DNA of 64,000 nt. Source: Algiphilus sp. (GTDB lineage: Bacteria > Pseudomonadota > Gammaproteobacteria > Nevskiales > Nevskiaceae). Position 1 is the stretch's first letter. Every line of letters starts with the position of its first letter. The DNA lies in contig NZ_JAGLEJ010000002.1 of NCBI RefSeq assembly GCF_023145115.1, positions 26,717 through 90,716 on the forward strand, read 5' to 3'. The notes below the pieces were generated by a model, which had not been told where the DNA came from, did no database searches, and worked only from the letters and a program-made list of their open reading frames with translations. Position numbers and translations under genes: made by a program. Positions 10,603-34,134 of this stretch are shown here, piece after piece.

Positions 10603-11682
10603 ATGCTGACCGTTCTCCTACTGGTGCTGGCCACGAGCGTCATGCTCAACGCCGGCATCGTGCTCACCCGCAGGTGGCACATCGCGGTCACCGGCGATGC
10701 GGTCGTGGCCGGTTCCTACAAGAAGCACCGGGAACCGGTGCCCCGCATCGGCGGCCTCGCCATCTTCCTGGCGCTGACGCTCGGGGTGGTGCTGGCCGCA
10801 CCCTGGCTCTATCCCAGCATCAATTACGTGTTCTGGGCCATGACTGCCTGCGTGGCGCTGATGTTCGGCATCGGTTTCCTCGAGGACCTCACCGGCAAGG
10901 TCCGGCCCACCATCCGCTATCTGGTCTGCATCGCGGCGGCGCTCGTGTTCAGCCTGGCCAACGCCCGGTTGGGCATCAGCTCGGTCGCCATCCCGTGGGT
11001 CGATCAGGCGCTCGCCTACGCCCCGGTGAGCGTGCTGTTCTTCGCCTTCGCGGTGGCCGGCATGACCCACGCCAGCAACCTCATCGACGGCCAGAACGGG
11101 CTCTGCGCCGGATTCTCGCTGCTCGCCTTCCTGGCCCTCGGGCTCGCGGCCGGCGCCTCCGGGCAGGTCGCGCTCGCGGCGCTCTGCGAGATCGCCATCG
11201 CCGCCACTCTCGGCTTCCTGCTGTTCAACTTTCCGCACGGCCGCATCTTCCTGGGCGACGGCGGCGCCTATCTCAACGGCGCCGTGGTCGCGATCCTGGC
11301 CGTGCTGGTGGTCAACGGCGCTTCCGGCATCTCCCCGTGGCTCGCGGTGGCGGTGCTCATCTACCCGGTGACCGAGACCTTCTACAGCATGATCCGGCGC
11401 CGCCGCGAGGGCCGCCCGTTCTACGAGCCCGACGACGCCCATCTCCACCACCTGCTGCGCGACCTCGCCGTCGCCCGGGGCTGGCCGCTGGCGCGCGTGC
11501 CGGCCCTGATGCCGCTGGCGATGATGGCGCCGTTCATGCTGGCCGCTCCGTTCGGTGCGCACTCCACGCCCGTCATGCTGGCGTACTGTGCAGCCTTCGC
11601 AGTGCTTTACGTCGCGGTCTACCGCGCGGCGAGCGCGTCCCTGTCGAAGGCGCGGGAAGAAGCCGTGCAGATGGGCGAGTAG
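10603..11682 (+). CDS. Polyprenyl-phosphate HexNAc-1-phosphate transferase (WecA/WbpL/MraY superfamily) - initiating enzyme
   Basis: 359 aa polytopic membrane protein with HREPVPRIGGLAIF, NLIDGQNGLCAGF and FLGDGGAYLNG motifs typical of this family. Confidence 0.85.
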   Translation: MLTVLLLVLATSVMLNAGIVLTRRWHIAVTGDAVVAGSYKKHREPVPRIGGLAIFLALTLGVVLAAPWLYPSINYVFWAMTACVALMFGIGFLEDLTGKVRPTIRYLVCIAAALVFSLANARLGISSVAIPWVDQALAYAPVSVLFFAFAVAGMTHASNLIDGQNGLCAGFSLLAFLALGLAAGASGQVALAALCEIAIAATLGFLLFNFPHGRIFLGDGGAYLNGAVVAILAVLVVNGASGISPWLAVAVLIYPVTETFYSMIRRRREGRPFYEPDDAHLHHLLRDLAVARGWPLARVPALMPLAMMAPFMLAAPFGAHSTPVMLAYCAAFAVLYVAVYRAASASLSKAREEAVQMGE

Positions 11683-11724
11683 CGCAGCAATCAGTCCGGC
11701 GCACCGGCCCACCCACAGGTATGC

Positions 11725-12849
11725 GTGCATTCGATGTCGATCAATTACAGCTGGGCCCTGGAGCGGTTCAAGCGGAAGCAGTTTCCCGAGATCGTGTCCA
11801 CCGGGGGCGCATTCCTGGAAGATCACAGCGGGCGCATTGCCGCGTCGGACGAGCTCATCAAGCTGGGTGACATCACTCTGCGGGCTGCGCTCATGCTCGG
11901 TGATCGCGCCCGAACCGATCGCTTGCTCGATGTGTGCGGCAACCTGGGAGCGCTGTCGCACTTCCGGGCAGCGACCGACCTTCAGGACGGAGACATCGAG
12001 GCGGCATGGTTCAGCCTCGCCAACGCCACGCCCTACAACCCCGACCACCACGGATTCTGGTCCCTGGGCCTCAATAGCGTGGTGCGCAACCCCGACTGGC
12101 TGCGCTACGCAGAGCGCGGATGCACCTTCCGGTCGCCAGCAACGGAAGCCGTCGTTGGCGGTGCCCGGTCATCGCCACGATATGCCGTGGTGTTCTCGTC
12201 GGATTCGGGCTACTTCAAGCGATTCTTCGAGCAGGGCATCGCGAGCCTCCGGCGGAACTGCTCGCACTTCCGAGCCTACTACTACGTCATCGAGCCCGAC
12301 GAGGAGTGTGTGCGCCTGATGCACATGCATGCCGCGGAGGACGTCGAGTTCCTGATCGATGCAGAGCCCCAGAGGCGGGGCGACAAGTCCTACTTCGCGA
12401 CGACGCGATTCTTCGCCGCGGACAGGGTGGTCAGGGAAACGGGACTGCCGGCCTTCATCTTCGATATCGACTCGTGCGTTCTGGCGGATCTCGCGACCCT
12501 GCTCTCGTCCGTGGAATGGCCTCGGGGGAAGACGGTCTGTCGCTTCATGGGGGGATTGGCGTTGCCGTGGCACAAGATCGTCGCGAATGCCATGTACGTT
12601 CCGCCAACTCGCGAGGGGCGTCAGTATCTGGAGGCCGTCTGTGCATACCTCCGCCACGTCTACAGCCGCTCATCCCGCGAGCGCTTGTGGTGGCTCGACC
12701 AGAACGCACTCTACTTCGCCTTTCTTGCGCGACAGCAAGGCGATTTCGCGAACTTCCCGGGGTGGGCAATGAACCGATACGTGCACTATCCAAGGATGTT
12801 CGAGGACAAGGACAAGGTGATGGCCGGTCGAAAGGGGGGCGCGGGGTAG
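11725..12849 (+). CDS. Hypothetical protein, possible GT-A-fold glycosyltransferase
   Basis: 374 aa in visibly lower-GC DNA than its neighbours. C-terminal half has RYAVVFSSDSGYFKRF ... LPAFIFDIDSCVLADL (DxD-like). No family recognised with certainty. The start may be the ATG at 11734. Confidence 0.5.
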   Translation: MHSMSINYSWALERFKRKQFPEIVSTGGAFLEDHSGRIAASDELIKLGDITLRAALMLGDRARTDRLLDVCGNLGALSHFRAATDLQDGDIEAAWFSLANATPYNPDHHGFWSLGLNSVVRNPDWLRYAERGCTFRSPATEAVVGGARSSPRYAVVFSSDSGYFKRFFEQGIASLRRNCSHFRAYYYVIEPDEECVRLMHMHAAEDVEFLIDAEPQRRGDKSYFATTRFFAADRVVRETGLPAFIFDIDSCVLADLATLLSSVEWPRGKTVCRFMGGLALPWHKIVANAMYVPPTREGRQYLEAVCAYLRHVYSRSSRERLWWLDQNALYFAFLARQQGDFANFPGWAMNRYVHYPRMFEDKDKVMAGRKGGAG

Positions 12850-12857
12850 TCCGTGGC

Positions 12858-15800
12858 TCAGGTGGTCTCTCGCGCGACCGCACGCCAGTCATTGCGCACG
12901 AACATGGATCGAAAGGCATCCCTGTCGCTGCTCCGCAACGTGCTCGTCGCCTGCTGGAGGAAGTGATAGAGCTTGGCATGCGGGGTGTAGATGATGCGCT
13001 TGCCGGCAATGCGGCGGACCGCTTCGCAGTACAGGCGATCGGAGCGATAGTGCGGTGCGTTCTCGTGATCGAGCGGGCCGAGAGTGTCCAGGGTTGCCCT
13101 CGGGATGTAGACACAGAAGAAGGGAGCGAAGCTCAGCTCGATATAGCCCGCGGGTCCGGATAGCGGCCGGAGCACATTGTCGTGGTGGGCGGAGAGGTTG
13201 ACCTCGATTTCGCGTTCCGGGTCGCAGGCGGGGCTGTGCGTACGGGTGGTCTTGGTGCCGGCGAGCAGCGTCTGACGCGACACCACCAGGCCCGCATCCG
13301 GCACATCTTCCAGGACGCGCTGCATGGCGCCGTCCCAGCCCGGGCAGACAACCGCATCGTTGTTGAGCAGTACGATGTCACTGTCGGCTGCGGCCGATTC
13401 AATGCCCTGGTTGACGGCATAGGTGAAGCCGTAGTTGCGCTCGTTGAGGATGACGCGGATATCGGGGTCATCCGCAATGCGCGACAGGTAGCTGCGTACT
13501 GGCTGCGAGGAGGCGTTGTCGACCACGATCAGACGGTATGGCGCTTCGGTGAAGGCGCGGACCGATTCGATGCAGAGCTGCAGGTGCTCCGGGCACTCGA
13601 AACTGGGGATGACGATCCCGAGCGGACGCCGTATCCGCGGAACGGGCCGGTGCTCCGGCGCGAACATCGCTTCCAGCCCCGGCACGCGGTGTCCCGGCAG
13701 CGCGTGCGCCAGCGGCTCGCGCGCGAGCGTTGCGCTTAGCGCCGCATTCTCGTCGAGCGATGACGCCGCCTCGGCAGCCGGGTCCCTGCCCTGGCGCTCG
13801 CTCAGCAGGCACGGCACCGCGACGCCGGCACTGGATGCGGAAATCGCCAGCAGGAAGGCCTGCCCGGACAGGTGGTCGAGGTCGGTGTCGAATCCGCCCG
13901 AAGACTCGGCTGCCGCACGTCGGCAGAGAACGCTGCCCAGGTCGATGTAGTCGCGATTCTCAAGCATTGCGCGCGCGAACATCGCGAAGGTTATGGCGTC
14001 GGGCTCCGTGTCCCCGGACGCGATGTCGAATCGGGTGCTCTGCGCGCTGTAGGCGAAGGGCGCTTCGGGCGCCTCCTGCAGCGTATCGAGCAGAATGGTG
14101 ATCGCGTGCGGCATCGGCCGGTGGTGGGGCTCCAGCCACATCAGATGGTCTCCGCCGGCCTTCGCCATTCCGGCGTTGCGCGCCGCCGCGATCCCGGGTT
14201 CGGTGACGGGGACGGTGCGCACGCGCGCGTCCTGCAGGGCCTCGCGCAGGCCTTCGACCTCGGCTCCGCCGACGAGCAGGAGCTCGATATTGTCGTGGCT
14301 CTGGGCGAGCACGCTCCGCGCCGCTTCGCCCGCCGCCTGGATCTCTTCTGCGTCGCAGTGGAGGATCACCGACACGCGGTCGTCGAGATTCCGCGAGGCC
14401 GCGCGCGCGCGACGATGGCGTTCGACCGCGTGCATGTGCCCGATTACGCGCTTTGCTTCCTCGGAGAACGGTGCGCGCAATGGTGGCAGGAACAGTGAGC
14501 GGCGCTCGAAGCTCTCGTAGTCGGTGAAGCCCGGCCCCTCGGGATCGGTTGAAGCCGGTGGGGGCGTTGGCGGGGGCGCCGGAGCCGGGGTAGGAGCCGA
14601 CTCAGTCGAGGGGGTGGGGGGCGTGATGTCCGCGAACTTGCGGCGGATGGCCGCTTCGTTGTCGGCCAGCGATTGCGTCAGCGTTATGTTGGAAAGGCCC
14701 TCAGCGATGTAGTACGCACACATCGCGTACGGATTGAATACCGGCTCGTGCTGGTGGGTGTAGCGGAGGATGAGGTCCCAGTCGACCAGTCGCGTCAGCG
14801 ACTCGTCGAAGCCGCCCAGCGCCTCGTAGACTTCGCGGTGGTGGGAAAAGACGTTGAGATCGATGTAGTTGCGCGCCAGCAAGCGGGACCAGTCGAAGGG
14901 TAGATGGCGGATGAACTCGCGACCCCCCACCTCGTCATGGACATGCACGCACGCGTACGCGGTGCGCCTCTCCGGATGTCGCGCGTATCCGGCCGCGGTC
15001 ATTAGCAGATAGTCCGGGTGCCAGGTGTTGTCGGAATCCAGCCACGCAATCCATGGTCCCTCGGCCGCGCGCAATCCGGCATTGCGTGCAGCACAGACAC
15101 CGCCATGCGGCAGTGCGAGGTAACGCAGTCGCCCGCGCGCGAACTCGTCGGCATAGCGTTCCCTCACGTATTCGGCAGTGCCGTCGGTGCTGCCGTCGTC
15201 GCAGATGATCAACTCCCAGTCGGGGTAGGACTGCGCGATCACCGAATCGATGGCCTTGTCGATGACGTCACGCCGGTTCCACGTCGGCATGATGATGCTG
15301 AACCGGCCCACGGGCGCTTTCTCCAGCGCGGTGCGAGCCTCGGTCGCGCGCTCGGGAGTGACCATGAGCGCGCGCGCCTGTTCGGAACGGGGGTCGATCT
15401 TGTCCTGCACCGGCGCCGGCACGGGGCGCACGGACGCAGTCGTGCCGGTGGTCGGCCGCGTTCCGAGTCGTCCTTCATCGCGCCCGACGAGCAGATAGTG
15501 CCAGAGTGCCGGTACGCCGGCGCGCTCGATTTCCGGATAGCGCTTGCGGTACCAGGCCAGGTCGAAGCGAGCACTCGGTGAGCGGCTCTCGGCCTGACCA
15601 TGGTGCAGGTAGTGACGCAGCGGATCCACGCCGGCGCGAGCAACGTCGCGGTAGCGGGTGAGGTACCAGTGCGGATCGAAGTGCGGTCCGGGCGCGCGCA
15701 TCTCGTCCGGCCCGTGCTCCAGGTAGTGGAACAGCGGGTTGAGCCCGGCCTCCGCGACGTCGGGATACTGCTCCAGATACCAGCTCGGATCGAAGAGCGG

Positions 15801-17417
15801 ATTGGGCTCGCGCCCCTCGCGCCAGCCCACGGCCAGCCAGTGCCACAACGGGTGGGCGCCATCCAGCGCGATGTCCGGATAGCGCAGCAGATACCACTCG
15901 GCATCGAACAAGCCGGTCCCGCGCAGCATGCGGGCCTGGCGCATCAGGCGGGCGTGCTCGCGCGGGCCGGTGGCGGCGCCGAACAGACGCAGCGGTGGCA
16001 CGCTGCGCGGGATGTGGACGGGTGTCTCGTCGGGGCGCAGGGCCCGCCGCCACCGCGCTGCCTTCCAGGGGGGCGGCTGCCACTGCAGGCGATGGAGGCG
16101 GCGAAGGGTGGCGAGGCGCTGCGAGAGCGCCCCCAGATTGCGCCGTCGCTCGGCGGTGAGGGCGGCTTCGTGTGTCGCGATCCGGTCACGCTGCTGTCGA
16201 TGTTCCGCCTCGAGCCGGTCGATGCGCTGCTTCTGCCACGCAATGCCACGCTTGAGCTCGTTCGTCCGCTCCCGGTGCCAGCGCACACCCTGCTCGAATC
16301 GGTCGCGCTCGGTGACGGCTTCACGATGGGCATCCTGCAGCGCCTCGATGCGGGATGCCTGCTCACGGATGCGCTCGTCGCGTTCACGGAGCGCGCTGGC
16401 CTGTTCCTCGGTCGTGGCTCGCTGTTGCTGCAGGGCCTCGGCCGCTTCGCGATGCTTCTCCTCCTTGCTCGTGGCCTTGGCATGCGCGGACCGCCGCGCC
16501 GCGACCTCTTCGCCGAACAACGGCCCCAGCGCCTCGGAGGCGCGATCGAGCTCGGTCCGGAGGGTATCGAGCCGGTCGACCGATTCCGGATTCTCGGGTT
16601 GCCGGCAGAGAATGGTGAGCGCCTCGGTCGCTTCCCGCACCCAGCGGGAGACGGTGGGGTCGGTGAAGAAGGCGTCAGTATCCACTGCATGATGACGCAG
16701 CCGACTGACCAGGAAGTCGTCCAGTGCATCCGCGGCATCCGATTCCGCGCGCGGATAGCGGATCGCCAGGCGCTCACTGATGGCGCTGGTGACACTGCGC
16801 CAGTCGTCCAGCAGGTCGGTATAGGCCACGAACACGCGCGGCCGCCCCCGGGTCGCATGCTCGGCATCGAGCACATGCCGCAGCCACAGGATGTGTCCCT
16901 TGGGCAGAGCGAAACCGTTGCGCTGCTGCAGCGACGCTGCTACCTCGGCGGGGCTGCGCAGCGGGATGATGGCTCGCGCGTCGGCACCGAAGCGTTCGAT
17001 GACCTCTTGCCAGAACGGCACCATGCGACAGATGCGCGGGTCCTTGAGAACGAAGAGCGCGGTGTTCGTGAAGTCGCGCTGTAGCAGCGCCACGGCTTCA
17101 TTGAGCAGACTTTCGCGTATTTCCGGGTCCAGCCGAGTCGTATCCAGTGGTCGCCAATCGTCCCAGTGCGATCCGAATGCATCTAGGACGCGGTCGTTCA
17201 GACGCTGGATATCGACGGACTCCCAGAATCCTGCCTCGTTCGCCGGACGCGCAGCCATGAGGTTGTCCGGCAACGCCGCGCCGAGAAGGCTCATCGCGCG
17301 GGTCAGGGCGGAGGTTCCGCTCCGGTGCATCCCGAGCACGAGCAACGCGGTGCCGCGCTCGGCGCCGGATGCCGCCGTGGGGTGCCGCTGCATGGGGTCT
17401 GTGGTCTCGCTGTCCAT
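12858..17417 (-). CDS. 1519-aa multidomain enzyme: sulfotransferase, coiled coil, 4 WY/HYL repeats, GT2, Pro-rich linker, degenerate GT2-like, GT2
   Basis: Sulfotransferase motifs GMHRSGTSAL (5'-PSB-like) and LRSPAEVAASL (3'-PB-like) at aa 29-165. Heptad-rich Arg/Glu/Gln region at aa ~285-445. Four ~38-aa repeats at aa 500-650. FSIIMPTWNRRDVIDKAIDSVIAQSYPDWELIICDDGSTDGT...AWLDSDN (GT2). TPPTPSTESAPTPAPAPPPTPPPAS linker. VSVILHCD...WLEPHH (GT2-like with DxD lost). LGIVIPSFECPEHL...LIVVDNASS...LLNNDAVV (GT2). Start taken at ATG 17417 (alternative 17393); the first 160 aa of the track ORF look non-coding. Confidence 0.85.
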   Translation of the reverse strand: MDSETTDPMQRHPTAASGAERGTALLVLGMHRSGTSALTRAMSLLGAALPDNLMAARPANEAGFWESVDIQRLNDRVLDAFGSHWDDWRPLDTTRLDPEIRESLLNEAVALLQRDFTNTALFVLKDPRICRMVPFWQEVIERFGADARAIIPLRSPAEVAASLQQRNGFALPKGHILWLRHVLDAEHATRGRPRVFVAYTDLLDDWRSVTSAISERLAIRYPRAESDAADALDDFLVSRLRHHAVDTDAFFTDPTVSRWVREATEALTILCRQPENPESVDRLDTLRTELDRASEALGPLFGEEVAARRSAHAKATSKEEKHREAAEALQQQRATTEEQASALRERDERIREQASRIEALQDAHREAVTERDRFEQGVRWHRERTNELKRGIAWQKQRIDRLEAEHRQQRDRIATHEAALTAERRRNLGALSQRLATLRRLHRLQWQPPPWKAARWRRALRPDETPVHIPRSVPPLRLFGAATGPREHARLMRQARMLRGTGLFDAEWYLLRYPDIALDGAHPLWHWLAVGWREGREPNPLFDPSWYLEQYPDVAEAGLNPLFHYLEHGPDEMRAPGPHFDPHWYLTRYRDVARAGVDPLRHYLHHGQAESRSPSARFDLAWYRKRYPEIERAGVPALWHYLLVGRDEGRLGTRPTTGTTASVRPVPAPVQDKIDPRSEQARALMVTPERATEARTALEKAPVGRFSIIMPTWNRRDVIDKAIDSVIAQSYPDWELIICDDGSTDGTAEYVRERYADEFARGRLRYLALPHGGVCAARNAGLRAAEGPWIAWLDSDNTWHPDYLLMTAAGYARHPERRTAYACVHVHDEVGGREFIRHLPFDWSRLLARNYIDLNVFSHHREVYEALGGFDESLTRLVDWDLILRYTHQHEPVFNPYAMCAYYIAEGLSNITLTQSLADNEAAIRRKFADITPPTPSTESAPTPAPAPPPTPPPASTDPEGPGFTDYESFERRSLFLPPLRAPFSEEAKRVIGHMHAVERHRRARAASRNLDDRVSVILHCDAEEIQAAGEAARSVLAQSHDNIELLLVGGAEVEGLREALQDARVRTVPVTEPGIAAARNAGMAKAGGDHLMWLEPHHRPMPHAITILLDTLQEAPEAPFAYSAQSTRFDIASGDTEPDAITFAMFARAMLENRDYIDLGSVLCRRAAAESSGGFDTDLDHLSGQAFLLAISASSAGVAVPCLLSERQGRDPAAEAASSLDENAALSATLAREPLAHALPGHRVPGLEAMFAPEHRPVPRIRRPLGIVIPSFECPEHLQLCIESVRAFTEAPYRLIVVDNASSQPVRSYLSRIADDPDIRVILNERNYGFTYAVNQGIESAAADSDIVLLNNDAVVCPGWDGAMQRVLEDVPDAGLVVSRQTLLAGTKTTRTHSPACDPEREIEVNLSAHHDNVLRPLSGPAGYIELSFAPFFCVYIPRATLDTLGPLDHENAPHYRSDRLYCEAVRRIAGKRIIYTPHAKLYHFLQQATSTLRSSDRDAFRSMFVRNDWRAVARETT
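15468..15920 (-). repeat. Protein-level tandem repeats (4 x ~38 aa): LFDxxWYLxxYPDVxxAGxxPLxHYLxxGxxEGRxPxP
   Basis: GLFDAEWYLLRYPDIALDGAHPLWHWLAVGWREGREPNP / LFDPSWYLEQYPDVAEAGLNPLFHYLEHGPDEMRAPGP / HFDPHWYLTRYRDVARAGVDPLRHYLHHGQAESRSPSA / RFDLAWYRKRYPEIERAGVPALWHYLLVGRDEGR. Confidence 0.85.
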
Positions 17418-18276
17418 CAGTGGAATTATGGCTGGATCAGGCAACGCGGCATGACGCCCGATGCCATTGCGTCGCGTTTCGCCGTTGCGACAGCTCGCCC
17501 ACGGTGCGCAGCTATGCGGCACACGCTTAGCGAAAGCGGTTGCGTACGATAGCAATGCAGTGCCTGCAAGCGGATCTTGCCGCCGGTGTGCGCCACGGCT
17601 GGCATGCTCCGGTCCGCGCGGTCTGCGGGACTCTCCGCGGGCAAGGCGGCAGCCGGATGCTGCGCAGTTGCTCGCGCACGCATGCAGCACGGTACGGTGG
17701 GTGTCTGGCGGCACGGCGGTTCTCCCCGTGTCGCGGGGTCGGGCCGCGGCACAGACGCGATCGCCCGATTCACAACGGGCGGGCCCGCGTTCCGGTGCGA
17801 GTGCGACAGCGCGTAAGACCTTGTGATTGCGAGGAATCCTGTCAGGCCGGTCGGACGCGGCCGGGAGGGTGTTGTGGCGCGGGGAAGGAGCGCGCATGCG
17901 CGCGAGCCCGAGCGAGGGGGCGGTGGAGGGCGCTTCTGCCGAGGCACGCCGGTTGTCGGGTGGACGGCTCCGATGATCCGGCTGCGCTTCACCGTGTTAC
18001 GGTGACGGGGAGTGCGGTTGATTCCAAGTCACCGAGTTGCAAAGCAACTTCGGCCGCCGGTCGAAAACGTGAACTTGGTCGCATGTCCCCGATATTGGGG
18101 CTTGCTCAACCGCATCTACTTCGGCATGCTTCGCCGAACCTCAGCGCGGGGTTGCGCGTGCGCTGGAGGTTGATCACGAGTTCGGGGGAATCACCTGAGT
18201 GCAAGCAAACAGTCGTCAGCACGTTGGGACGAACCCGGCTTCAGAAAGTTGTTCTCTTGTACAAGGAGATTTTGGG

Positions 18277-21069: not shown

Positions 21070-21795
21070 ATGCTGCGCTTCCTCGGCATCGGCGCCCAGA
21101 AGGCCGGGACCACCTGGCTGTACGAGCGCTTGCGCCGGCATCCGGAGGTGGGCTTCCCGATCGGCAAGGAAGGGCATTACTGGGATCGTGTCAATCCCGA
21201 GGGCAGCCATGACAGCTATATGGCGCGCTTTGCCGATCCGGAGCGGGCGGAAGGCGAGATCACGCCAGCGTACGGATTTCTACCACCGGCCTCTATAGCG
21301 CGTCTGCATTCGCTGGCTCCGGACGTGCGGTTGATCTTCCTCATGCGCAATCCGGTGGAGCGCGCCTGGTCGTCGGCCCTGATGGCGCTGGGGCGCGCGG
21401 AGATGCGCTACGAGGAAGCCAGCGCGGCATGGTTCCTGGACCACTTTCGTTCGAGTGGATCGCTGGCGCGCGGTGATTACGCGGCATGCATTGCCAACTG
21501 GCGTGCGGCGTTTCCGCCCGAACAGCTGCTTCTGTTGCGCCACGAGGAGGTCGCGCGTGATCCGCACGCCGTGCTGCGTCGCTGCTGCGCGCACATCGGT
21601 ATCGCGGCGCCGGATCCGGCGATGCTCGAAGGCAGCGACGATCGCGTTTTCTCCGGACCGCGCCACGCGCTTCCCGGGGACCTGCGCGCAGCCCTGGTGG
21701 CACTGTATCGTCCACGGATCGCGGCGCTGGAGGCCCTGCTGGGCGAATCCTTCGAGCACTGGCTGGAAATGGACGCTGCTGACCATCCCGAATAG
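21070..21795 (+). CDS. Sulfotransferase (carbohydrate-sulfotransferase-like PAPS motifs)
   Basis: FLGIGAQKAGTTWLYERL (5'-PSB, compare the K-x-G-T-T motif of heparan-sulfate sulfotransferases) and LIFLMRNPVERAWSS (3'-PB R-x-P-x-x-R-x-x-S). 241 aa. Confidence 0.8.
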   Translation: MLRFLGIGAQKAGTTWLYERLRRHPEVGFPIGKEGHYWDRVNPEGSHDSYMARFADPERAEGEITPAYGFLPPASIARLHSLAPDVRLIFLMRNPVERAWSSALMALGRAEMRYEEASAAWFLDHFRSSGSLARGDYAACIANWRAAFPPEQLLLLRHEEVARDPHAVLRRCCAHIGIAAPDPAMLEGSDDRVFSGPRHALPGDLRAALVALYRPRIAALEALLGESFEHWLEMDAADHPE

Positions 21796-26258: not shown

Positions 26259-26261
26259 CCC

Positions 26262-27089: not shown

Positions 27090-27096
27090 GACGATC

Positions 27097-27768
27097 GTGA
27101 TTCGCGTCTCCAATATCACCAAGTCCTATCCGATCCAGGGCTTCGCGCGCTACACCGTATTGCGCGATCTGAGCCTGGAGCTGCCGTCACGCACGCCGGT
27201 AGGCATCGTCGGCCGCAACGGGGCCGGCAAGAGCACGCTGCTGCGGCTGCTCGGCGGGATCGAGCTGCCCGACCGTGGCCGGGTCGAGGCGGACGGCCGC
27301 ATTTCGCCTCCGCTGGGTCTGACCAGCGGGTTCGCGCAGCGCATCTCGGGGCGCGACAATGCCCGCTTCGTGTCGCGGATCAATGGCGACGACCGCGCGA
27401 CCCAGCGCGAGCGCGTTGCCTACATCCACGCCTTCTCCGAACTAGGTGACTTCTTCGAGCGGCCGGTGGAGACCTATTCCTCCGGCATGCGGGCGCGGCT
27501 GGCGTTCTCGATCAGCATGTCCTTCGAGTTCGACTACTACCTGATCGACGAGCTCACCGCGGTGGGCGACCAGAAATTCCGCGCCAAGGCGCAGAAGACC
27601 TTCGAGGAGAAGAAGGGCCGGTCCAGCGTCATCATGGTCAGCCACAATCTGGGCCAGCTCAAGCGCGACTGCACCGTGGGCGTCTACCTGCGCGCCGGCG
27701 AGGCCGTCTACTACGACGATATCGAGGCGGCGATCGCCGCCTACAACGAGGATGTACAGCATTCATGA
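27097..27768 (+). CDS. kpsT: Polysaccharide export ABC ATPase (KpsT-like, no C-terminal carbohydrate-binding extension)
   Basis: GTG 27097. Walker A GRNGAGKST, signature YSSGMRARLAF, Walker B YYLIDE. Only ~223 aa. Confidence 0.9.
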   Translation: MIRVSNITKSYPIQGFARYTVLRDLSLELPSRTPVGIVGRNGAGKSTLLRLLGGIELPDRGRVEADGRISPPLGLTSGFAQRISGRDNARFVSRINGDDRATQRERVAYIHAFSELGDFFERPVETYSSGMRARLAFSISMSFEFDYYLIDELTAVGDQKFRAKAQKTFEEKKGRSSVIMVSHNLGQLKRDCTVGVYLRAGEAVYYDDIEAAIAAYNEDVQHS

Positions 27769-28868
27769 AGGTGGATCCGCCCTGGAAGGCGAACAAGCTG
27801 CTGCGATACGTGGGCGTTGTGCTCGCGCCGACCCTGCTGGTGCTGCTCTATCAGGCGCTGATCGCGTCGGACGGCTACATAAGTGATGCGCAGGTCATGG
27901 TCGAGCATGAAACACCGATGCCGGCCCCCGAACTGGCCATCGGCAACCTCCTGGGCAGTACGCCCACCAAGACCGATGCGCTGGTGGTGAAGACCTTCAT
28001 GGAGTCGCGCGCGATGCTGGAACACCTCGAGGAGACGCTCGATCTGCGCGCGCACTTCAGATCGAAGGACATCGACCCCTGGAACCGCCTGGCGCCGGAC
28101 GCGACACGCGAGGAAGTGCTGGCCTACTACCTCGATCATCTCGAGGTGACCGTCGATCAGGAGTCCTACATCCTCAACATCGCGTTCGTTGCCTACGATC
28201 CGGCCTTTGCGCAGCAGGTCACCCAGGAACTCGTGGCGCGCAGCGAGAGCTTCGTCAACAACATCAGCCAGCATCTGGCGCGCGAACAGATGCAGTTCGT
28301 GCAGGGCGAGGTGGAGCGCGCGCACGGCGAGCTCAAGAAGGCCTCGCGCGAGATGGTGGATCTGCAGCAGCAGTACGAAGTGCTCAGCCCCGAATCGGAA
28401 TCGGAAGCCGCCGGCACCATCCTGGCCGGTCTGCTGCAGGAGCTGGCGAAGCAGCGGACGCAGCTCAAGGCACTGACCAGCTATCTCAATTCCGGCGCTT
28501 CGGAGGTCGTGCAGACGCGCCAGAAGATCGCCGCGCTGGAGGAGCAGATCGCGCAGGAGCGCGCCAAGCTGGTCGGGGACGAGGGCTACGAAGGCCTCAA
28601 CGAGCTCATGCTCGCCTATCAGGACGCCGAGGTGAATCTCAAGGTGGCCACGGAGGTCTATCAGTCGGCGATCGGAACGCTCGAGACCACCCGCCTGGAG
28701 ACTGCGCGCAAGGCCAAGTATCTGGTATCGGTATCGGCGCCGGGGCTGCCCGACGAGGCCGAGCACCCGCGCATCCTCTACTGGACGGGCACCGTCTTCG
28801 TCTTCCTCAATCTCGCCTACTTCGTGCTCGGACTGATCATCGCCACGGTCCGCGATCACCGGGAGTGA
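27765..28868 (+). CDS. kpsE: Capsule export inner-membrane adaptor (KpsE/CtrB, PCP-3-like)
   Basis: N-terminal TM LRYVGVVLAPTLLVLLYQALIASDGYISDAQVMVE, a long coiled periplasmic region and a C-terminal TM WTGTVFVFLNLAYFVLGLIIATV. ATGA overlap with kpsT. Confidence 0.8.
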   Translation: MKVDPPWKANKLLRYVGVVLAPTLLVLLYQALIASDGYISDAQVMVEHETPMPAPELAIGNLLGSTPTKTDALVVKTFMESRAMLEHLEETLDLRAHFRSKDIDPWNRLAPDATREEVLAYYLDHLEVTVDQESYILNIAFVAYDPAFAQQVTQELVARSESFVNNISQHLAREQMQFVQGEVERAHGELKKASREMVDLQQQYEVLSPESESEAAGTILAGLLQELAKQRTQLKALTSYLNSGASEVVQTRQKIAALEEQIAQERAKLVGDEGYEGLNELMLAYQDAEVNLKVATEVYQSAIGTLETTRLETARKAKYLVSVSAPGLPDEAEHPRILYWTGTVFVFLNLAYFVLGLIIATVRDHRE

Positions 28869-30580
28869 CCATCATGCGACGCCGTTTCATCGCCACCCTG
28901 GCCGTGCTGCTGCTGCCCGCGGCGCTGCCCGCGCAGCAACTGCCCATGTTCGAGCCGGACGCCGAGTCGCTGATGCCGACCACGCCGCAGGTGTCGCAGT
29001 CCGGGGCGCGTCAGGTACAGCCCACCGACCCGCCGCCCAAGGAGCGGCCGAAGGACGACGATCTCCGCGAGGTGGAGACCGGTCCGGACGCCCCCTTCGG
29101 CGCCTACCTGTTCCGCGGTCGCTTCGCGCAGGAATCCTTCCGCGGCTTCAATCCGGATTACGTGATCGGCGTCGGCGATCGCATCAACATCAAGCTCTGG
29201 GGCGCCTTCGAGGCCACCCAGCAGCTCGAGGTCGATTCCCAGGGCAACATCTTCGTGCCGCGCGTCGGGCCCATCAGCGTGCAGAACGTGCGCAACGAGG
29301 ATCTCAACCGGGTCATCAACCAGCGCATCAAGAACGTCTACCGGGAGAACGTGGGGGTCTACGCTGCGCTGGCGGTGGCCGATCCGGTACGCGTCTTCGT
29401 CACCGGCAACGTCGAGGCCCCCGGCCTCTACGCGGCGCACGGCTCCGATTCGCTGCTGCACTTCCTCGACCGCGCCGGCGGCATTGCGCCCGACAGCGGC
29501 AGCTATCTGGACGTGCGCGTGCTGCGCAACGGCGAGGAGCGTGCGCAGGTCGATCTCTACGATTTCCTGCTGCGCGGCGAGCTGCCGCTCATCCAGTTCC
29601 GCGATGGCGACACCATTCTCGTCGAGCGTCGCCACTCCACCGCGACGGTCAGCGGCATGGTCGATCGCGAGGCACGCTTCGAGTTCAAGCAGTCGATTCC
29701 GCTGCCCGAGCTGCTGTCCTACGCGGGCGTGCAGGAGCGCGCCACCCACGTGCAGGTCATCCGCAACCAGACCCGGCAGCGCGAGGCCGAGGTGCTGGCG
29801 CTGGGCGGCGGGCTGGCGTCGGTCGACATCGTGTCCGGAGACGAAGTGCGCGTCTTCGAGGACCGGCGCATCGGCGCCATCACCGCGTCCGTCGAGGGCG
29901 AGTTCCAGGGCGTCAGCCAGTTCGTGCTGCCCTACGACAGCACCCTGCAGGATCTGCTCGACCGCATCGAGGTCACCGACCGCTCCAATCTCGCCGGTCT
30001 CCAGCTCTATCGCCAGAGCGTGGCCCAGCGCCAGAAGGAAGTGCTCGACCAGATGCTGCGCAAGCTCGAGGAGGCGGTGCTCAGCGCGCGCTCCGGCACA
30101 CGAGAGGAGGCCCAGCTCCGCGTGGCCGAGGCCGAGCTCATCAAGGAGTTCATCGAGCGCGCGTCCAAGGTCGAGCCCAAGGGACGCGTCGTGCTGCACA
30201 AGGGGTTCGATCCGGCCTCCATCGCCCTCGAAGACGGCGATGTCCTGCGTGTTCCGCGGCACAGCAACACCGTTGCGGTGCAGGGCGAGGTCTTCCTGCC
30301 GACCTCCTTCGTGCATCAGGAGGGCAAGCCCGTCGACTACTACCTCGAGCAGGCGGGCGGCCTGACCCAGGCCGGCGGCGGTGACAAGATCTTCGTGATG
30401 CGGGCCAACGGCGAGATCGCCGATGCCAAGAGCGGCCTCTTCACGCGGACCCGGGTGCGGCCCGGTGACGAGATCATGGTGCTGCCCACCGTGCAGCTGA
30501 AGACCTTCCAGTTCACCAAGGATCTCACCCAGGTGATGTCGCAGGTGGCGCTGACCGCGGGCGTGGTGCTAGGGATCTGA
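28865..30580 (+). CDS. kpsD: Polysaccharide export protein (KpsD/OPX family with SLBB domains)
   Basis: Signal peptide RRRFIATLAVLLLPAALPAQQ. YVIGVGDRINIKLWGAFEATQQLEVDSQGNIFVPRVGPISVQN (Poly_export motif) and several SLBB-like repeats (GDTILV, GDVLRVP, GDEIMVLP). The start could be ATG 28874. Confidence 0.8.
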   Translation: MTIMRRRFIATLAVLLLPAALPAQQLPMFEPDAESLMPTTPQVSQSGARQVQPTDPPPKERPKDDDLREVETGPDAPFGAYLFRGRFAQESFRGFNPDYVIGVGDRINIKLWGAFEATQQLEVDSQGNIFVPRVGPISVQNVRNEDLNRVINQRIKNVYRENVGVYAALAVADPVRVFVTGNVEAPGLYAAHGSDSLLHFLDRAGGIAPDSGSYLDVRVLRNGEERAQVDLYDFLLRGELPLIQFRDGDTILVERRHSTATVSGMVDREARFEFKQSIPLPELLSYAGVQERATHVQVIRNQTRQREAEVLALGGGLASVDIVSGDEVRVFEDRRIGAITASVEGEFQGVSQFVLPYDSTLQDLLDRIEVTDRSNLAGLQLYRQSVAQRQKEVLDQMLRKLEEAVLSARSGTREEAQLRVAEAELIKEFIERASKVEPKGRVVLHKGFDPASIALEDGDVLRVPRHSNTVAVQGEVFLPTSFVHQEGKPVDYYLEQAGGLTQAGGGDKIFVMRANGEIADAKSGLFTRTRVRPGDEIMVLPTVQLKTFQFTKDLTQVMSQVALTAGVVLGI

Positions 30581-31366
30581 TCCGGTCCGCCGCGCGCGCA
30601 GCGCGTGGCGGTACCCCGGCGAGCGCCAGAGACGGAGCAGGCTGCGCAGATGCCAGCGCAGATGCTGCGCGCGCCTGAGCGTGCGGCGCCCGGGGTCGTG
30701 CACGATGCGGAGCTCGGGCAGCAGCGCCACCGACAGTCCCAGCGCCCGCGCGCGCAGGCTGAGGTCGACATCCTCGCAGTAGAGGTAGTAGCCCTCGTCG
30801 AAACCGTTCAGTCGTCGGAAGGTGTCCGTGCGCATGGCCAGGAAGAGCCCGGCCAGCCAGTCGACATCGCGCTGACCGTGACCGGGCGCGCGAGCGGCAT
30901 CGCGCAGCTCGCCGGACAGATAGCGCCGCAGCAGCGCCGCCGGCGTGGGCAGCATGCGGCCGTTGTCCTGCGGCGCACCGCCGGAGGTGTGCGCCATGGG
31001 CGAGACGATCCCGGCGCCCGGGCGGCGCAGCTCCGCTTCGACGGGGTCGAAGACGGCCTCGTCCACGCGCAGCTCGGGGTCGGCCATCAGCACGAATTCC
31101 GAGTCACTGTCGCGCAGCGCGGCATTGTGATTGGCGCCGAACCCCTTCGGTCGCGCGTTGCGGATCACGGTGAGCCGGTCGCGCATGGGCTCCGGCAGGG
31201 TCGACAGGGCTGCCGGATCCTCGGGGATGTTGCACGTGAGGATCAGTCGATGCGGTCGATCCGCGAGGCGCGCGTGGATCGAGCGCAGGCTGTCGAGCGC
31301 ACGGATGCCGTGCCCGTGGCTGACCACGGATACCGTCCAGCGCGGTGGCGTCGCGCCCGCGCTCAT
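30569..31366 (-). CDS. GT2 family glycosyltransferase
   Basis: VSVVSHGHG...VIRNARPKGFGANHNAAL...FVLMADPEL...WLAGLFLAMRTDTFRRLNGFDEGYYLYCEDVDLSLRA. Convergent 12-nt overlap with kpsD. Confidence 0.75.
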   Translation of the reverse strand: MSAGATPPRWTVSVVSHGHGIRALDSLRSIHARLADRPHRLILTCNIPEDPAALSTLPEPMRDRLTVIRNARPKGFGANHNAALRDSDSEFVLMADPELRVDEAVFDPVEAELRRPGAGIVSPMAHTSGGAPQDNGRMLPTPAALLRRYLSGELRDAARAPGHGQRDVDWLAGLFLAMRTDTFRRLNGFDEGYYLYCEDVDLSLRARALGLSVALLPELRIVHDPGRRTLRRAQHLRWHLRSLLRLWRSPGYRHALRARRTGSDP

Positions 31367-32277
31367 CGGCCGCCGGTGCGCCCCCGGAGCCCGTCGCGCG
31401 TGCCGCGCAGCATGCTGCCGAGCTTGTCGAGCCGTTGCCGCTCGAAGGCCGCGACCTTGATCAGCAGCTTGAGCCCGCCGAGCGACTCGTATGCCATCCA
31501 GGCCGGGAAGCGGGCCGCGTGGCGGCGTGCCAGGATGATGCGGTTGCGGCTGATGAAGTAGTGCCGCAGCGCGCCGTGATGGGTCGGATAGGCGCGCACG
31601 CCGCCGGGCAGCCGTCGCTGCTCGACCTCGCCGAGGGCGTGTCCGAGGGTGGCGTCAGGCACCGCGACGATGGCGTAGCCGTCCGCCCGCGCCCGCAGGC
31701 AGAAGTCGGTGTCGACGAGGTCGATGAACAGGCGTTCGTCGAAGCCGCCCAGTGCGGACCAGGCCGCGACCGGTACCAGCATGCCGGAGCTGATCGCGAG
31801 ATCGACGCGGGTGGGCGTGTCGATGCGCTCGGCATAGACGAAGCGGAAGAACGGGCTGCGGCCACCGCGCGACGCCGGCCACCGGCAGGTGATGTCGGGA
31901 TGGCCGTAGACGATGCGCGGCACCGCGGCGGCCACCGGTGCATGGCGCGGATCCTCGGCGGCCGCCAGCAGGCGGTCGACCGCCCCCGGCTGCGGCACGC
32001 TGTCGTGATCCAGCAGGAAGGCGTGCGTCGCACCGAGTGCGCGCGCGTGGGCGATGCCGCGGTTGGTGGCGGCGGCGATGCCCTCGTTGCGCGCATTGTC
32101 CAGCGCGTGCAGCTGGCCGACACCGCGTGCGCGCAGCGCCTCCGGCGACCACCGCGTGTCGGACGCGTTGTCGACCACGACCGTGAGCGCGCTCTGCTCC
32201 GCGGCGCGTGCTACGCGGTCGTCGAAGCCCGGCGGCGGGTTGTAGCGGATGATGACGGACGCGACGCGGGCGGACAT
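31363..32277 (-). CDS. GT2 family glycosyltransferase (rhamnosyltransferase-like)
   Basis: ASVIIRYNPPPGFDDRV...VVVDNASD...NEGIAAATNRGI...FLLDHDSVP...FIDLVDTDFCLRA. ATG 32277. ATGA-type overlap with the downstream GT2. Confidence 0.8.
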   Translation of the reverse strand: MSARVASVIIRYNPPPGFDDRVARAAEQSALTVVVDNASDTRWSPEALRARGVGQLHALDNARNEGIAAATNRGIAHARALGATHAFLLDHDSVPQPGAVDRLLAAAEDPRHAPVAAAVPRIVYGHPDITCRWPASRGGRSPFFRFVYAERIDTPTRVDLAISSGMLVPVAAWSALGGFDERLFIDLVDTDFCLRARADGYAIVAVPDATLGHALGEVEQRRLPGGVRAYPTHHGALRHYFISRNRIILARRHAARFPAWMAYESLGGLKLLIKVAAFERQRLDKLGSMLRGTRDGLRGRTGGR

Positions 32278-32370
32278 GACGAGACGATACCCGTTCTCGG
32301 ACCCGGCGGCCGGACCGCGCCGCTGCACCGGTATGATGCGGGACCCGCGCCCGAGACCCGACACCGCTTC

Positions 32371-34134
32371 ATGTTCCAGCCCCGTGCCCGCCGTCCCGCG
32401 CCCGGCGCCCTGACCACGGTCAGCGGGCGCGAGGTCACCGGCTGGGTGATGGCCGGCGCTGCCGGCGAGCCGCTGACGGTCGTGCTGGAGATCGACGGCA
32501 TCGAGGTCGCGCGCACCGACGCCGACCTGCCGACCGAGGCGTACGATCGCGCCGCGACCGGCTTCCGCTTTGCGGCGGATACGCGCTTCACCGCGCTCGG
32601 TGGCAGTCGCTACGCCGCTGTTCGTGTGTTCGTCGAGCGTGACGGCGGCGGTCGCGACGAGCTCGCGCGCAGCCCGCAGGTTCTGGTGCTGCATCCCGAT
32701 GTCGAACGCGGCGGCGCAGCCTGCATCCTCACGGCGGGGCGGACGCGGGCAGTGTCGCTGGCGCACGACCTCCGCGCCGCTCACGGCGGTAGTGTCGCCG
32801 AGATGCATGGTGTGCGCGACGCCCTCGACCTTCCCGATGCCTTCCCGCGCGGATGCCGCTACGTGGTCGGCGATCTGCCGGCGATGACGGCCCGTCAGGC
32901 CGGGCTGGTCGACTACGCATGGGTGCTGCTGCTCGCGGATCCGGTCCGGCATCTGCGCGAGACGCTCGCCGAGCTGTGCGATGGCCGTGCGGCACCGCTG
33001 CGCGGCGGCGCCGAGGCGGATCGGGCCTGGCTCGACCGTCTGGCGGCGGTCGATACCGCCGACGCGCCGGCTTTGGCGGCCTGCCTCGCGGATGCGCCCG
33101 CGGCGATCCGCGCCCTGATCGACAACCCGCAGTGCCGCCTGTTGCTGCCGCCGCGGCAGGATCGCATCGGGCCGCGGCAGGGGGGCGCGGCGCAGCGTCA
33201 TCTGGGGTGGTTCGATGCGGTGGCGGTGGATGGCGATCCGGGGGCAGGGCGCAACCGGGTTGGGCGCCTGTACGGCATTCCGGAACCCGTCGGAGCGGGA
33301 ATGCCGGCGTCGGCGCCGACCGTTTTCGACAGCATTCCGGAATCGGTGCTCGCGCCCTTCGTCGAGCAGGACCGGGCCCTGATCGCGGCCGCCCGGTCGT
33401 GTCCGGAGCGCCCGCCGGGCGTGGCCTGGCGCGTGCGCAGCGGCCGCCGCGCGCTGGGCGCCGAACGCCTTGCCGCCGACCGCGGTGATGGCCGCGCGGC
33501 ACCCGATGCATCGCGCCGGCCCTTCGCCATCCTGCGCGCCCCCGAGCCGCGGGCGAAGCGCACGCTCGTGGTGCTGGGCGTTTCCCGCGGCGGCACCTCG
33601 ATGGTGGCAGGTACGCTCCGTCTGGCAGGGGTCTTCATGGGGCAGCGGCTGTCCAGCGACAGCCACGAGGACCGCGACTTCCACGTGCACGATCGTCGCA
33701 CCCTGCGCCGGCTGATCGCGGAGCGCAATGCGGCGCACGCCGTCTGGGGCTGGAAGTATCCGCACGCCTTCGACTACCTCGCGCGCATCCGCGGCAGCCT
33801 GCGCAATCCCCGCTTCATCGTCGTGTTCCGCGATGCGGTGGCGGTGGCCCAGGCCTTCAACCGCGCCGACGGCATGCCCTTCGACCGCGCGCTGCGCGAG
33901 GCCGAGGCGCGGTACCGGCGTCTGGCGCGCTTCGTCGCCCGCTGTCGCGATCCGGTGCTGGCGATCTCCTACGAGAAGGCACTCGCCGATCGCGAGGGTT
34001 ATCTGCTCGGGCTGGCCGACTTCTGCGGTCTGCATCCGAGCCCCGAGCAGTTCGATGCCTGCCGGGATTTCGTGTCTCCCGGCGATTATGTCCGCCTGCG
34101 CGGCGGCCCCGGCCGGGTGCGCCGCCAGCCCTGA
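32371..34134 (+). CDS. 587-aa bipartite protein: unknown N-terminal region plus C-terminal sulfotransferase domain
   Basis: In-frame ATG 32371 inside track ORF 31345..34134. C-terminal ~200 aa: RTLVVLGVSRGGTSMVAGTLRLAG (5'-PSB-like, closely resembling GMHRSGTS of the 1519-aa enzyme) ...RFIVVFRDAVAVAQAF. N-terminus contains VTGWVMAGAAGEPLTVVLEIDGIEVARTDADLP. Confidence 0.7.
   Translation: MFQPRARRPAPGALTTVSGREVTGWVMAGAAGEPLTVVLEIDGIEVARTDADLPTEAYDRAATGFRFAADTRFTALGGSRYAAVRVFVERDGGGRDELARSPQVLVLHPDVERGGAACILTAGRTRAVSLAHDLRAAHGGSVAEMHGVRDALDLPDAFPRGCRYVVGDLPAMTARQAGLVDYAWVLLLADPVRHLRETLAELCDGRAAPLRGGAEADRAWLDRLAAVDTADAPALAACLADAPAAIRALIDNPQCRLLLPPRQDRIGPRQGGAAQRHLGWFDAVAVDGDPGAGRNRVGRLYGIPEPVGAGMPASAPTVFDSIPESVLAPFVEQDRALIAAARSCPERPPGVAWRVRSGRRALGAERLAADRGDGRAAPDASRRPFAILRAPEPRAKRTLVVLGVSRGGTSMVAGTLRLAGVFMGQRLSSDSHEDRDFHVHDRRTLRRLIAERNAAHAVWGWKYPHAFDYLARIRGSLRNPRFIVVFRDAVAVAQAFNRADGMPFDRALREAEARYRRLARFVARCRDPVLAISYEKALADREGYLLGLADFCGLHPSPEQFDACRDFVSPGDYVRLRGGPGRVRRQP

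Follow-up and report, generated by a model that had tools for sequence, protein, structure and literature searches.

Within a 64-kb window of Algiphilus sp. DNA (the whole stretch analysed here, with a G+C content of 69%), the segment from 7.0 to 34.1 kb is probably one biosynthesis-and-export locus, whose product would most likely be a surface polysaccharide that contains rhamnose and sulfate esters, in the form of a capsule or of a released exopolysaccharide (EPS). The locus encodes three sulfotransferase domains, here called ST1, ST2 and ST3, which an earlier note on this DNA had picked out from short motifs as dependent on 3'-phosphoadenosine 5'-phosphosulfate (PAPS). These domains are confirmed as real, and it is the hidden Markov model and fold results that carry the claim. 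A sulfated capsule locus alone would be a further example of a published kind; the less ordinary part is a 1519-aa synthase in which ST1 is joined through a coiled coil to three modules of glycosyltransferase family 2 (GT2).

At this G+C content, mechanical lists of open reading frames (ORFs) are full of false frames. Genes were called from codon-position G+C and cross-checked against the calls on near-identical public contigs, and exact-sequence look-ups place the proteins of the window in Algiphilus sp. The genes for the three sulfotransferase proteins (1519, 241 and 587 aa) are also called on those contigs; NCBI names the 241-aa product a "sulfotransferase family protein" and the 587-aa product a "sulfotransferase", but the 1519-aa product only a "glycosyltransferase". 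The features of the locus are as follows.

7014-7904, minus: rmlD, dTDP-L-rhamnose synthesis
7904-8452, minus: rmlC, dTDP-L-rhamnose synthesis
8449-9330, minus: rmlA, dTDP-L-rhamnose synthesis
9327-10385, minus: rmlB, dTDP-L-rhamnose synthesis
10603-11682, plus: WecA/MraY-family polyprenyl-phosphate N-acetylhexosamine-1-phosphate transferase, 359 aa (Glycos_transf_4, TIGR02380)
11734-12849, plus: 371-aa protein without a family match (sequence VVFSSDSGY...FIFDIDS)
12858-17417, minus: 1519-aa multidomain synthase (sulfotransferase, coiled coil, 38-aa repeats, three GT2 modules)
16602-17351, minus: ST1 domain, N-terminus of the synthase (residues ~23-272)
16077-16589, minus: coiled-coil spacer of the synthase (residues ~277-447)
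15453-15908, minus: four tandem 38-residue repeats of the synthase (residues 504-655)
12909-15299, minus: three GT2 modules of the synthase
18277-19902, plus: 541-aa secreted protein (signal peptide, good ribosome-binding site)
20054-21061, plus: parvulin-type peptidyl-prolyl isomerase lipoprotein, 335 aa (Rotamase 1.2e-23; lipobox LLAAC)
21070-21795, plus: ST2, 241-aa sulfotransferase (Sulfotransfer_3, Sulfotransfer_1)
21809-22819, minus: GT-B glycosyltransferase, 336 aa (Glyco_trans_1_4, Glyco_transf_4)
22849-24390, minus: 513-aa protein, repeats and a C-terminal GT2/GT21-like domain (profile matches and repeat analysis)
24540-26258, plus: 572-aa GT2 protein (Glycos_transf_2 1.1e-15)
26262-27089, plus: KpsM-type permease of an ATP-binding cassette (ABC) transporter, ABC-2 family, 275 aa (ABC2_membrane 2.9e-14)
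27097-27768, plus: KpsT/Wzt-type ABC ATPase, 223 aa (ABC_tran)
27765-28868, plus: KpsE (PCP-3) family inner-membrane export protein, 367 aa (TIGR01010)
28874-30580, plus: KpsD/Wza-like outer-membrane polysaccharide export (OPX) protein, 568 aa (Poly_export 1.9e-16, SLBB_2, SLBB)
30569-31366, minus: GT2 glycosyltransferase, 265 aa (strand by codon-position G+C)
31363-32277, minus: GT2 glycosyltransferase, 304 aa (strand by codon-position G+C)
32371-34134, plus: 587-aa protein with ST3 at its C-terminus (~33520-34134; Sulfotransfer_3)

Both strands carry long ORFs at 31.3-34.1 kb, where codon-position G+C and Pfam matches assign the 304-aa GT2 to the minus strand and the 587-aa protein to the plus strand.

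Three sulfotransferase domains and the synthase that carries ST1

The five peptide motifs quoted in the earlier note lie where it had placed them, all in frames whose codon-position G+C marks them as coding: GMHRSGTS (17333-17310, minus) and LRSPAEVAAS (16961-16932, minus) in ST1, GAQKAGTTW (21091, plus) and RNPVERAWS (21346, plus) in ST2, and GVSRGGTS (33577, plus) in ST3. A P-loop motif alone is weak evidence, since a loose P-loop pattern has eight matches in the six-frame translation of the 64 kb, but family or fold bears out all three domains (Pfam; AlphaFold2 (AF2) models searched with Foldseek). The Pfam searches proposed in the note place ST2 and ST3 above the family cut-offs and ST1 below, whereas structure prediction, which it had also proposed, gave confident AF2 models of ST1 and ST3 that match sulfotransferases in the PDB.

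For ST1, a sulfotransferase fold that is weak by sequence is confirmed on the strength of its AF2 model, which has a predicted local distance difference test score (pLDDT) of 91.3. The 11 best PDB matches in Foldseek are all sulfotransferases, with a probability of 1.00, and P-loop kinases appear only lower down; the top matches include 4gox (3e-5), TPST2 and the sulfotransferase domains of olefin synthase and CurM, while Stf9, Stf0 and the SULT enzymes come further down. The domain has a 5'-phosphosulfate-binding (5'-PSB) motif, GMHRSGTS, and a 3'-phosphate-binding (3'-PB) motif, R154...S162. Across 40 homologues (37-50% identity), M30-H31-R32-S33-G34-T35-S36, R154 and S162 are invariant, and some ST1 homologues carry a precomputed PF13469 match. 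Single-sequence searches of the PDB with ST1 or ST3 returned nothing meaningful, and the ST1 family profile drew only weak PDB matches to coiled-coil or low-complexity chains because the homologues carry the coiled coil.

In the synthase, that coiled coil (~277-447) separates ST1 (23-272) from the three GT2 modules (from ~707). Residues 300-447 are proline-free and rich in Arg, Glu, Gln and Ala, and the AF2 model shows one unbroken helix that begins at residue 277 and runs on to residue 339, where the model stops. The hydrophobic residues L/I/V/M/F recur with a periodicity of 3.5 residues (power 1.73 against 0.13 when shuffled, a value reached in 0 of 2000 shuffles; none at 3.6), which identifies it as a heptad coiled coil of about 150 residues. 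Behind it stand four copies of a 38-residue repeat with the consensus FDxxWYLxxYPDV..G..P..HYL..G..EGR.P, which no Pfam model covers, and then the GT2 modules at ~707-837, ~1027-1119 and ~1266-1503, matched by Glycos_transf_2 on separate segments (1.7e-32, 1.4e-11 and 1.4e-18, respectively).

ST2 matches both Sulfotransfer_3 (3.3e-17, 63.9 bits, cut-off 27) and Sulfotransfer_1 (1.4e-12, 48 bits, cut-off 22). The earlier note had described its motifs as closest to those of animal heparan-sulfate enzymes. This stands among characterised enzymes, where the heparan-sulfate 3-O-sulfotransferase (3-OST) 3-OST-3A matches at 4e-13 and 3-OST-1, 3-OST-5 and NDST1 are also found, but the best PDB match overall is an uncharacterised bacterial sulfotransferase, 3rnl (1e-21). 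K11, the 5'-PSB Lys, and RNPVERAWS, a 3'-PB motif of the form RxPxxRxxS, align to 3-OST-3A, and E62 at the catalytic-Glu position in GEITPAY aligns to EKTPSY (pattern E-x-T-P-x-Y). As judged from these alignments, the heparan-sulfate 3-O-sulfotransferases are the closest characterised relatives of ST2, and the 5'-PSB Lys, the catalytic-Glu position and the 3'-PB motif are common to ST2, the animal 3-OST-1, -3A and -5, and NDST1. Unlike the animal 3-OSTs, however, ST2 is about 30 residues shorter, and the rest of the Algiphilus locus bears no likeness to heparosan synthesis. The ST2 gene begins 9 bp after that of the parvulin-type lipoprotein, and ST2 is seemingly co-transcribed with this periplasmic lipoprotein and the 541-aa signal-peptide protein, which are unusual partners for a cytoplasmic sulfotransferase.

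ST3 forms the C-terminal ~200 residues of the 587-aa protein and scores 33 bits against Sulfotransfer_3, above the cut-off of 27. Its AF2 model has a pLDDT of 92.5, and the top 50 Foldseek matches are all sulfotransferase-fold enzymes crystallised with 3'-phosphoadenosine 5'-phosphate, including retinol dehydratase; in a search of the PDB, the ST3 family profile matches TPST1 at 2e-5. The C-terminal domain alone finds 98 homologues and the whole 587-aa query 3. The 5'-PSB motif and the 3'-PB Arg (R104 of the domain) are conserved family-wide. The N-terminal ~100 residues of the 587-aa protein are shared with the closest relative, P0154 (residues 12-104 align, 5e-9), and this homology supports the called start, for which codon positions could not be used because a related contig differs there at only four nucleotides. 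Between the two lies a middle region of ~290 residues (32686-33540, plus), rich in Ala, Arg and Asp, which separates domains that are adjacent in P0154 and has no homologues in 5.8 billion proteins.

Predicted chain assembly and export

The sulfotransferases lie among genes for sugar-nucleotide synthesis, glycosyl transfer and export. The rmlBACD genes (rfbBACD in the earlier note) directly adjoin the block at 7014-10385, with Pfam matches to GDP_Man_Dehyd/Epimerase, NTP_transferase, dTDP_sugar_isom and RmlD_sub_bind, and rmlB, rmlA, rmlC and rmlD are called as 352, 293, 182 and 296 aa on an identical contig. The WecA-like initiator matches Glycos_transf_4 at 7e-28 and has 10 hydrophobic segments. 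Three glycosyltransferase modules in the synthase and one in each of the 336-, 513-, 572-, 265- and 304-aa proteins give eight, in agreement with the note's count of at least eight. The 513-aa protein also contains four copies of the synthase's 38-residue repeat (residues 37-185; 23836-24282, minus), and the N-terminal half of the 572-aa protein looks like a second, degenerate GT2. Neither the 371-aa nor the 541-aa protein has a Pfam, NCBIfam or PDB match, although the sequence of the 371-aa protein looks like that of a GT-A/GT8-like nucleotide-sugar transferase.

The kpsMTED set reported in the note is recognised in full at family level, and KpsM, KpsT, KpsE and the OPX protein are encoded in one co-directional block with overlapping or near-abutting ends. 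The best NCBIfam matches of KpsT are TagH and Wzt, and it has no C-terminal carbohydrate-binding module. The note's statement that wzx, wzy and wzz are missing holds for the locus: of the proteins encoded in 10.6-34.1 kb, only WecA (10) and KpsM (6) have the three or more hydrophobic segments of a polytopic membrane protein, so there is no Wzx, Wzy or WaaL in this interval, and no Pfam matches to Polysacc_synt, Wzy_C or Wzz were found. We read the segment as a single locus because eight glycosyltransferase modules, a WecA-like initiator and KpsM/T/E/OPX lie in one operon-spaced block with adjoining rml genes. The note's prediction of an ABC-exported, sulfated surface glycan is supported as far as sequence analysis allows, but "heavily" sulfated is not a property that can be read from sequence.

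From this gene content we infer a pathway, including its substrates, the order of its steps, its lipid anchor and sulfation itself. RmlBACD would make dTDP-L-rhamnose, and the WecA-like enzyme would prime undecaprenyl phosphate at the cytoplasmic face of the membrane. The chain would then be assembled wholly in the cytoplasm by the three GT2 modules of the synthase and five further glycosyltransferases, with the 513-aa protein probably docked to the synthase since it has the same 38-residue repeats. The ST1, ST2 and ST3 proteins have neither a signal peptide nor a hydrophobic segment, so sulfation would be cytoplasmic, and the three PAPS-dependent domains are predicted to act on the chain before export: ST1 may sulfate the non-reducing end at a set chain length and cap the chain, whereas ST2 and ST3 may sulfate internal residues. 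KpsM and KpsT would carry the finished chain over the inner membrane, and KpsE and the OPX protein on to the surface.

Relatives of the sulfotransferases and alternative readings

ST1 belongs to a very large family. An exhaustive HMMER search with this domain found 19,060 cluster representatives at E<=1e-3, of which 5,778 reach E<=1e-30, and among the named genomes listed, members come from Alpha- and Gammaproteobacteria, Bacteroidia, Planctomycetota, cyanobacteria and Acidobacteria, many of them "sulfotransferase family proteins" of Mesorhizobium and Phyllobacterium. Among the best 150 representatives, 54 are giants of at least 1000 aa, with the sulfotransferase N-terminal in nearly all, and the five giants checked by Pfam all carry C-terminal glycosyltransferase modules (GT2, GT1, RgpF, WbsX, GT8 or TOD1, with a methyltransferase in one). 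Family ORFs measured from the start of the sulfotransferase to the stop codon (n=65) fall into lengths of at least 1000 aa (18), 600-999 aa (19) and shorter (28), the shorter members consisting of a sulfotransferase and a coiled coil. The 38-residue repeat, possibly a docking module, occurs behind the spacer in about 38 fetched family proteins, with 2-9 copies in many giants.

The neighbourhoods of these relatives link ST1 and ST3 with glycan assembly and sometimes also with PAPS supply. In 57 loci of at least 15 kb from named genomes (tblastn; counts are lower bounds), we find within 10 kb of the ST1 homologue rml genes in 25, a polysaccharide-type ABC ATPase in 22, an ABC-2 permease in 15, a KpsE-like gene in 9 and cysNC in 7. 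Two of three stand-alone homologues inspected lie in loci with Wzm/Wzt, rml and multiple GT2 genes, the exception being that of Tautonia, and the Mesorhizobium homologue adjoins cysD/cysNC and a WaaL-like gene. Roughly 18 of 21 transporter ATPases near ST1 homologues lack a carbohydrate-binding extension. The other three are long, at 422-483 aa counted from the start of the nucleotide-binding domain, and belong to Phyllobacterium (L023 12803-), a deltaproteobacterial metagenome-assembled genome (L057 7773-) and Leptolyngbya (L065 7591-); by length, their extensions are of the size expected for cap-reading carbohydrate-binding modules. All three ST3 homologues inspected stand beside a GT2 gene (a dual-GT2 in two), two of them in ABC-2 transporter cassettes, one of which also has KpsE-like and OPX genes. 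Comparison with related loci, another check proposed in the note, thus finds relatives of ST1 and ST3 in ABC-2 transporter, glycosyltransferase and rml loci, sometimes beside cysD/cysNC. In one compact metagenomic cassette (L091 8001-16029), genes for an ST3-like sulfotransferase of 322 aa and a dual-GT2 protein of 744 aa are accompanied by those for an ABC-2 permease, an ABC ATPase, a KpsE-like protein (374 aa) and an OPX protein; it is a minimal version of the same pathway type and could serve as a convenient experimental model.

Several results weigh against a sulfated, Kps-exported polysaccharide. The export and initiation proteins stay below the equivalog cut-offs of the dedicated NCBIfam models: the WecA-like protein scores 108 bits against TIGR02380 ECA_wecA (4.5e-31, cut-off 326), KpsM 132 bits against NF050053 (2.6e-38, cut-off 300) and KpsE 278 bits against TIGR01010 BexC_CtrB_KpsE (9.8e-83, cut-off 437). 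ST1 reaches 17.5 bits against Sulfotransfer_3, under the cut-off of 27, in a match that covers profile positions 3-214 of 216. At the 3'-PB Ser position, ST3 has Ala, its closest relative P0154 has Gly, and the more distant P0155 has Ser. No ORF in the window, or in the adjoining 10 kb on the left, gives a KpsS/KpsC (Capsule_synth-type) match. These beta-Kdo (3-deoxy-D-manno-octulosonic acid) transferases build the poly-Kdo-phosphatidylglycerol anchor and are conserved in canonical ABC-exported capsules, with the Vi antigen as an exception; canonical group 2/3 capsules have KpsM/T/E/OPX in common with the Algiphilus locus, but their KpsS/KpsC are not in the window. PAPS-synthesis genes (cysD/N/C, cysQ) are likewise missing from the 64 kb and the 10 kb to the left. 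Two further points count against capping by ST1 in particular: the 223-aa KpsT has no cap-reading module, like most transporters near ST1 homologues, and capsule-type (Kps) export is not known to use a terminator.

The lack of KpsS/KpsC, together with a WecA-type initiator and adjoining rml genes, raises the alternative that the product is a lipopolysaccharide (LPS) O-antigen, that is, an undecaprenyl-diphosphate-linked sulfated rhamnan that leaves the cytoplasm through the ABC transporter and is joined to lipid A-core by a WaaL whose gene lies elsewhere. The ABC ATPase, which scores best against TagH and Wzt rather than KpsT, would suit this, as would the Chelativorans and Mesorhizobium ST1 homologues, which lie in Wzm/Wzt loci without OPX (a Wzy_C/WaaL-like gene being near the Mesorhizobium one). 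However, the permease scores best against KpsM, we find no WaaL-like polytopic protein in 10.6-34.1 kb, and kpsMT are directly followed by genes for a KpsE-family protein (9.8e-83) and an OPX protein, which serve capsule or EPS export and not LPS. We therefore regard an O-antigen as unlikely. Still less probable, in our view, is that some sulfotransferase domain, or several, lacks activity or has a target other than the glycan, such as a peptide, protein or lipid. Here ST3 is the main candidate: the best PDB matches of its family profile are tyrosylprotein sulfotransferases, its 3'-PB Ser is replaced as described, its gene is divergently transcribed and lies at the locus's edge, its protein has a middle region devoid of homologues, and the locus does encode a secreted protein of 541 aa. 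Against this stand the three relatives beside GT2 genes, two of them in transporter cassettes, the family-wide conservation of the 5'-PSB motif and 3'-PB Arg, and the Ser retained in P0155.

Within the preferred reading of a sulfated capsule or EPS, two roles can be considered for ST1. In Klebsiella pneumoniae O12 WbbB and O7 ORF6, an N-terminal terminator is mounted on a coiled-coil "molecular ruler" with C-terminal glycosyltransferase modules, and the extended coiled coil has been called "a characteristic marker" of terminator systems (PMC11231755). We propose that ST1 caps chains with sulfate and so limits their length because its domain order matches that of these terminator-ruler proteins; by this analogy, capping is a tentative assignment that we place somewhat short of even. 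Also in its favour are the heptad periodicity, the giants among the closest representatives and the three ATPases with long extensions. Alternatively, ST1 could sulfate internal residues of the growing chain, with the coiled coil serving only to oligomerise the synthase or to position it on the membrane, and to this we give a substantial chance, though less than half. In favour of internal sulfation, the ATPases of this locus and of most ST1-homologue loci lack a cap-reading module, and Kps-type capsules have no established termination mechanism; polysaccharide sulfation is a characterised activity of M. loti KpsS, and to our knowledge neither it nor S. meliloti LpsS has been described as a terminator. 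Yet the domain order and long heptad coiled coil match those of experimentally defined terminator-ruler-polymerase proteins, and the two further sulfotransferases of the locus could already account for internal sulfation.

If ST1 does cap, it may be the founding member of a large, so far unrecognised class of chain-terminating sulfotransferases, in which sulfate at the non-reducing end would stop polymerisation and the coiled coil would be the molecular ruler; this extension, too, we place short of even. The module is fused to the polymerase here and in about a quarter to a third of close relatives, and it also stands alone with its coiled coil. The conserved block of 38-residue repeats would be a docking site recruiting separate glycosyltransferases, for example the 513-aa protein.

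Comparison with known systems and neighbouring genes

Algiphilus is presumably a member of the order Nevskiales. A close published counterpart by gene content is the gene cluster of Vibrio sp. KMM 8419, which has a chemically proven sulfated, rhamnose-containing capsule, for which its authors propose an undecaprenyl phosphate-primed, ABC-exported assembly, and one of whose sulfotransferases was reported to be closest to Nevskiales (PMC11641403). Like Algiphilus, this strain is a marine gammaproteobacterium, and its cluster likewise has rml genes, WecA, several GT2, kpsD/M/T/E and three sulfotransferase genes, with yjbFGH adjoining. It differs in having its own cysNDC and kpsS, in its G+C content of 43% and in that no sulfotransferase-polymerase fusion is described, and the likeness is one of gene content and not of compared sequences. 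Another marine gammaproteobacterium, Cobetia marina KMM 1449, also has a chemically proven sulfated, rhamnose-containing capsule (PMC11766843). Its cluster shares kpsETMD, rhamnose (rml) genes, glycosyltransferases and a sulfotransferase with that of Algiphilus, but also contains kpsSC, a wcb lipid-carrier operon, PAPS genes with cysQ and a sulfate permease; the Algiphilus locus is without these features and has the WecA-like initiator instead. With both clusters published, the earlier note's description of sulfated bacterial surface glycans as genetically poorly described is outdated, and its claim that they are uncommon goes too far.

When compared to the coiled-coil terminators, the synthase resembles WbbB, ORF6 and E. 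coli O9a WbdD in its layout, with a modifying enzyme at the N-terminus, an extended coiled coil and glycosyltransferase modules towards the C-terminus; WbdD is a stand-alone enzyme with a coiled coil, as are the stand-alone ST1-family members, and the modules of O7 ORF6 are two GT2 that add rhamnose (PMC11231755). The main difference is in the distal enzyme, which is a beta-Kdo transferase or a methyltransferase-kinase in those systems, whereas in the Algiphilus synthase it has a sulfotransferase fold. Unlike those systems, moreover, the Algiphilus ATPase is without a carbohydrate-binding module, KpsE and an OPX protein are present, and 38-residue repeats follow the coiled coil. Our literature search turned up no paper in which a sulfotransferase is connected with a coiled-coil terminator; key O-antigen reviews lay outside its scope, and an earlier mention is possible. 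The rhizobial enzymes KpsS (Mesorhizobium loti) and LpsS (Sinorhizobium meliloti) are older PAPS-dependent capsule and LPS sulfotransferases, which have proteobacterial polysaccharide sulfation in common with ST1 and are set beside it here by function, not by sequence.

The interest of the locus lies mainly in a testable idea, namely that a very large sulfotransferase family serves as ruler-mounted chain terminators. The known glycan caps are methyl, methyl-phosphate, beta-Kdo and pyruvate. If the terminator class is real, sulfate would join them and the terminator-ruler mechanism would extend to Kps-type export; if the ST1 family at large caps with sulfate, the mechanism of the Klebsiella and E. 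coli O-antigens would apply with new chemistry over many phyla. There is demand for sulfated polysaccharides from bacteria as heparin-like and antiviral biomaterials, and the acceptor is known for few bacterial polysaccharide sulfotransferases. The Algiphilus locus offers three different sulfotransferases in one defined pathway of a cultivable marine genus.

The map of the window includes three further features:

~2.1-7.0 kb, plus: yjbEFGH-like operon
17418-18276, no strand: divergent intergenic region of 859 bp between the synthase and 541-aa genes
from 34512: unrelated acetate-type cluster

The intergenic region is long and G+C-rich. An Rfam search of the window, this gap included, found no family, and the ops/JUMPstart core was not found in intergenic regions, its two matches in coding DNA being at chance level. 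A 241-aa "gene" called here on public contigs (17555-18280) was rejected, as its Arg/Cys-rich product is not coding-like. In another Algiphilus assembly, GCA_049594715.1, a Transposase_mut gene stands at a contig end (L004 1-354) just upstream of the gene for the 541-aa protein, and an insertion sequence may lie in or near the long gap in that strain.

Adjoining rml, the yjbEFGH/gfc-like operon (2097-7003, plus) encodes proteins of 119 and 152 aa, a 288-aa SLBB protein, YjbH (732 aa) and YjbF (251 aa). On the other side of the locus, the acetate-utilisation-like cluster (34512-47718) encodes a sodium:solute symporter, a DUF294 nucleotidyltransferase, a PAS and exonuclease protein, a DcaP-like porin, an acetyl-CoA synthetase and a hybrid sensor kinase with about 13 hydrophobic segments; on related contigs, a DUF4212 gene lies upstream of the symporter. 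Beyond it, 16 kb from the locus, is a gene for a SulP-family sulfate permease with a STAS domain (49977-51767, plus), which is possibly tied to the sulfate supply of the locus. It is preceded by a gene for a metallo-beta-lactamase-fold protein, and a divergent FAD/NAD disulfide oxidoreductase gene stands by the permease within 47969-51767.

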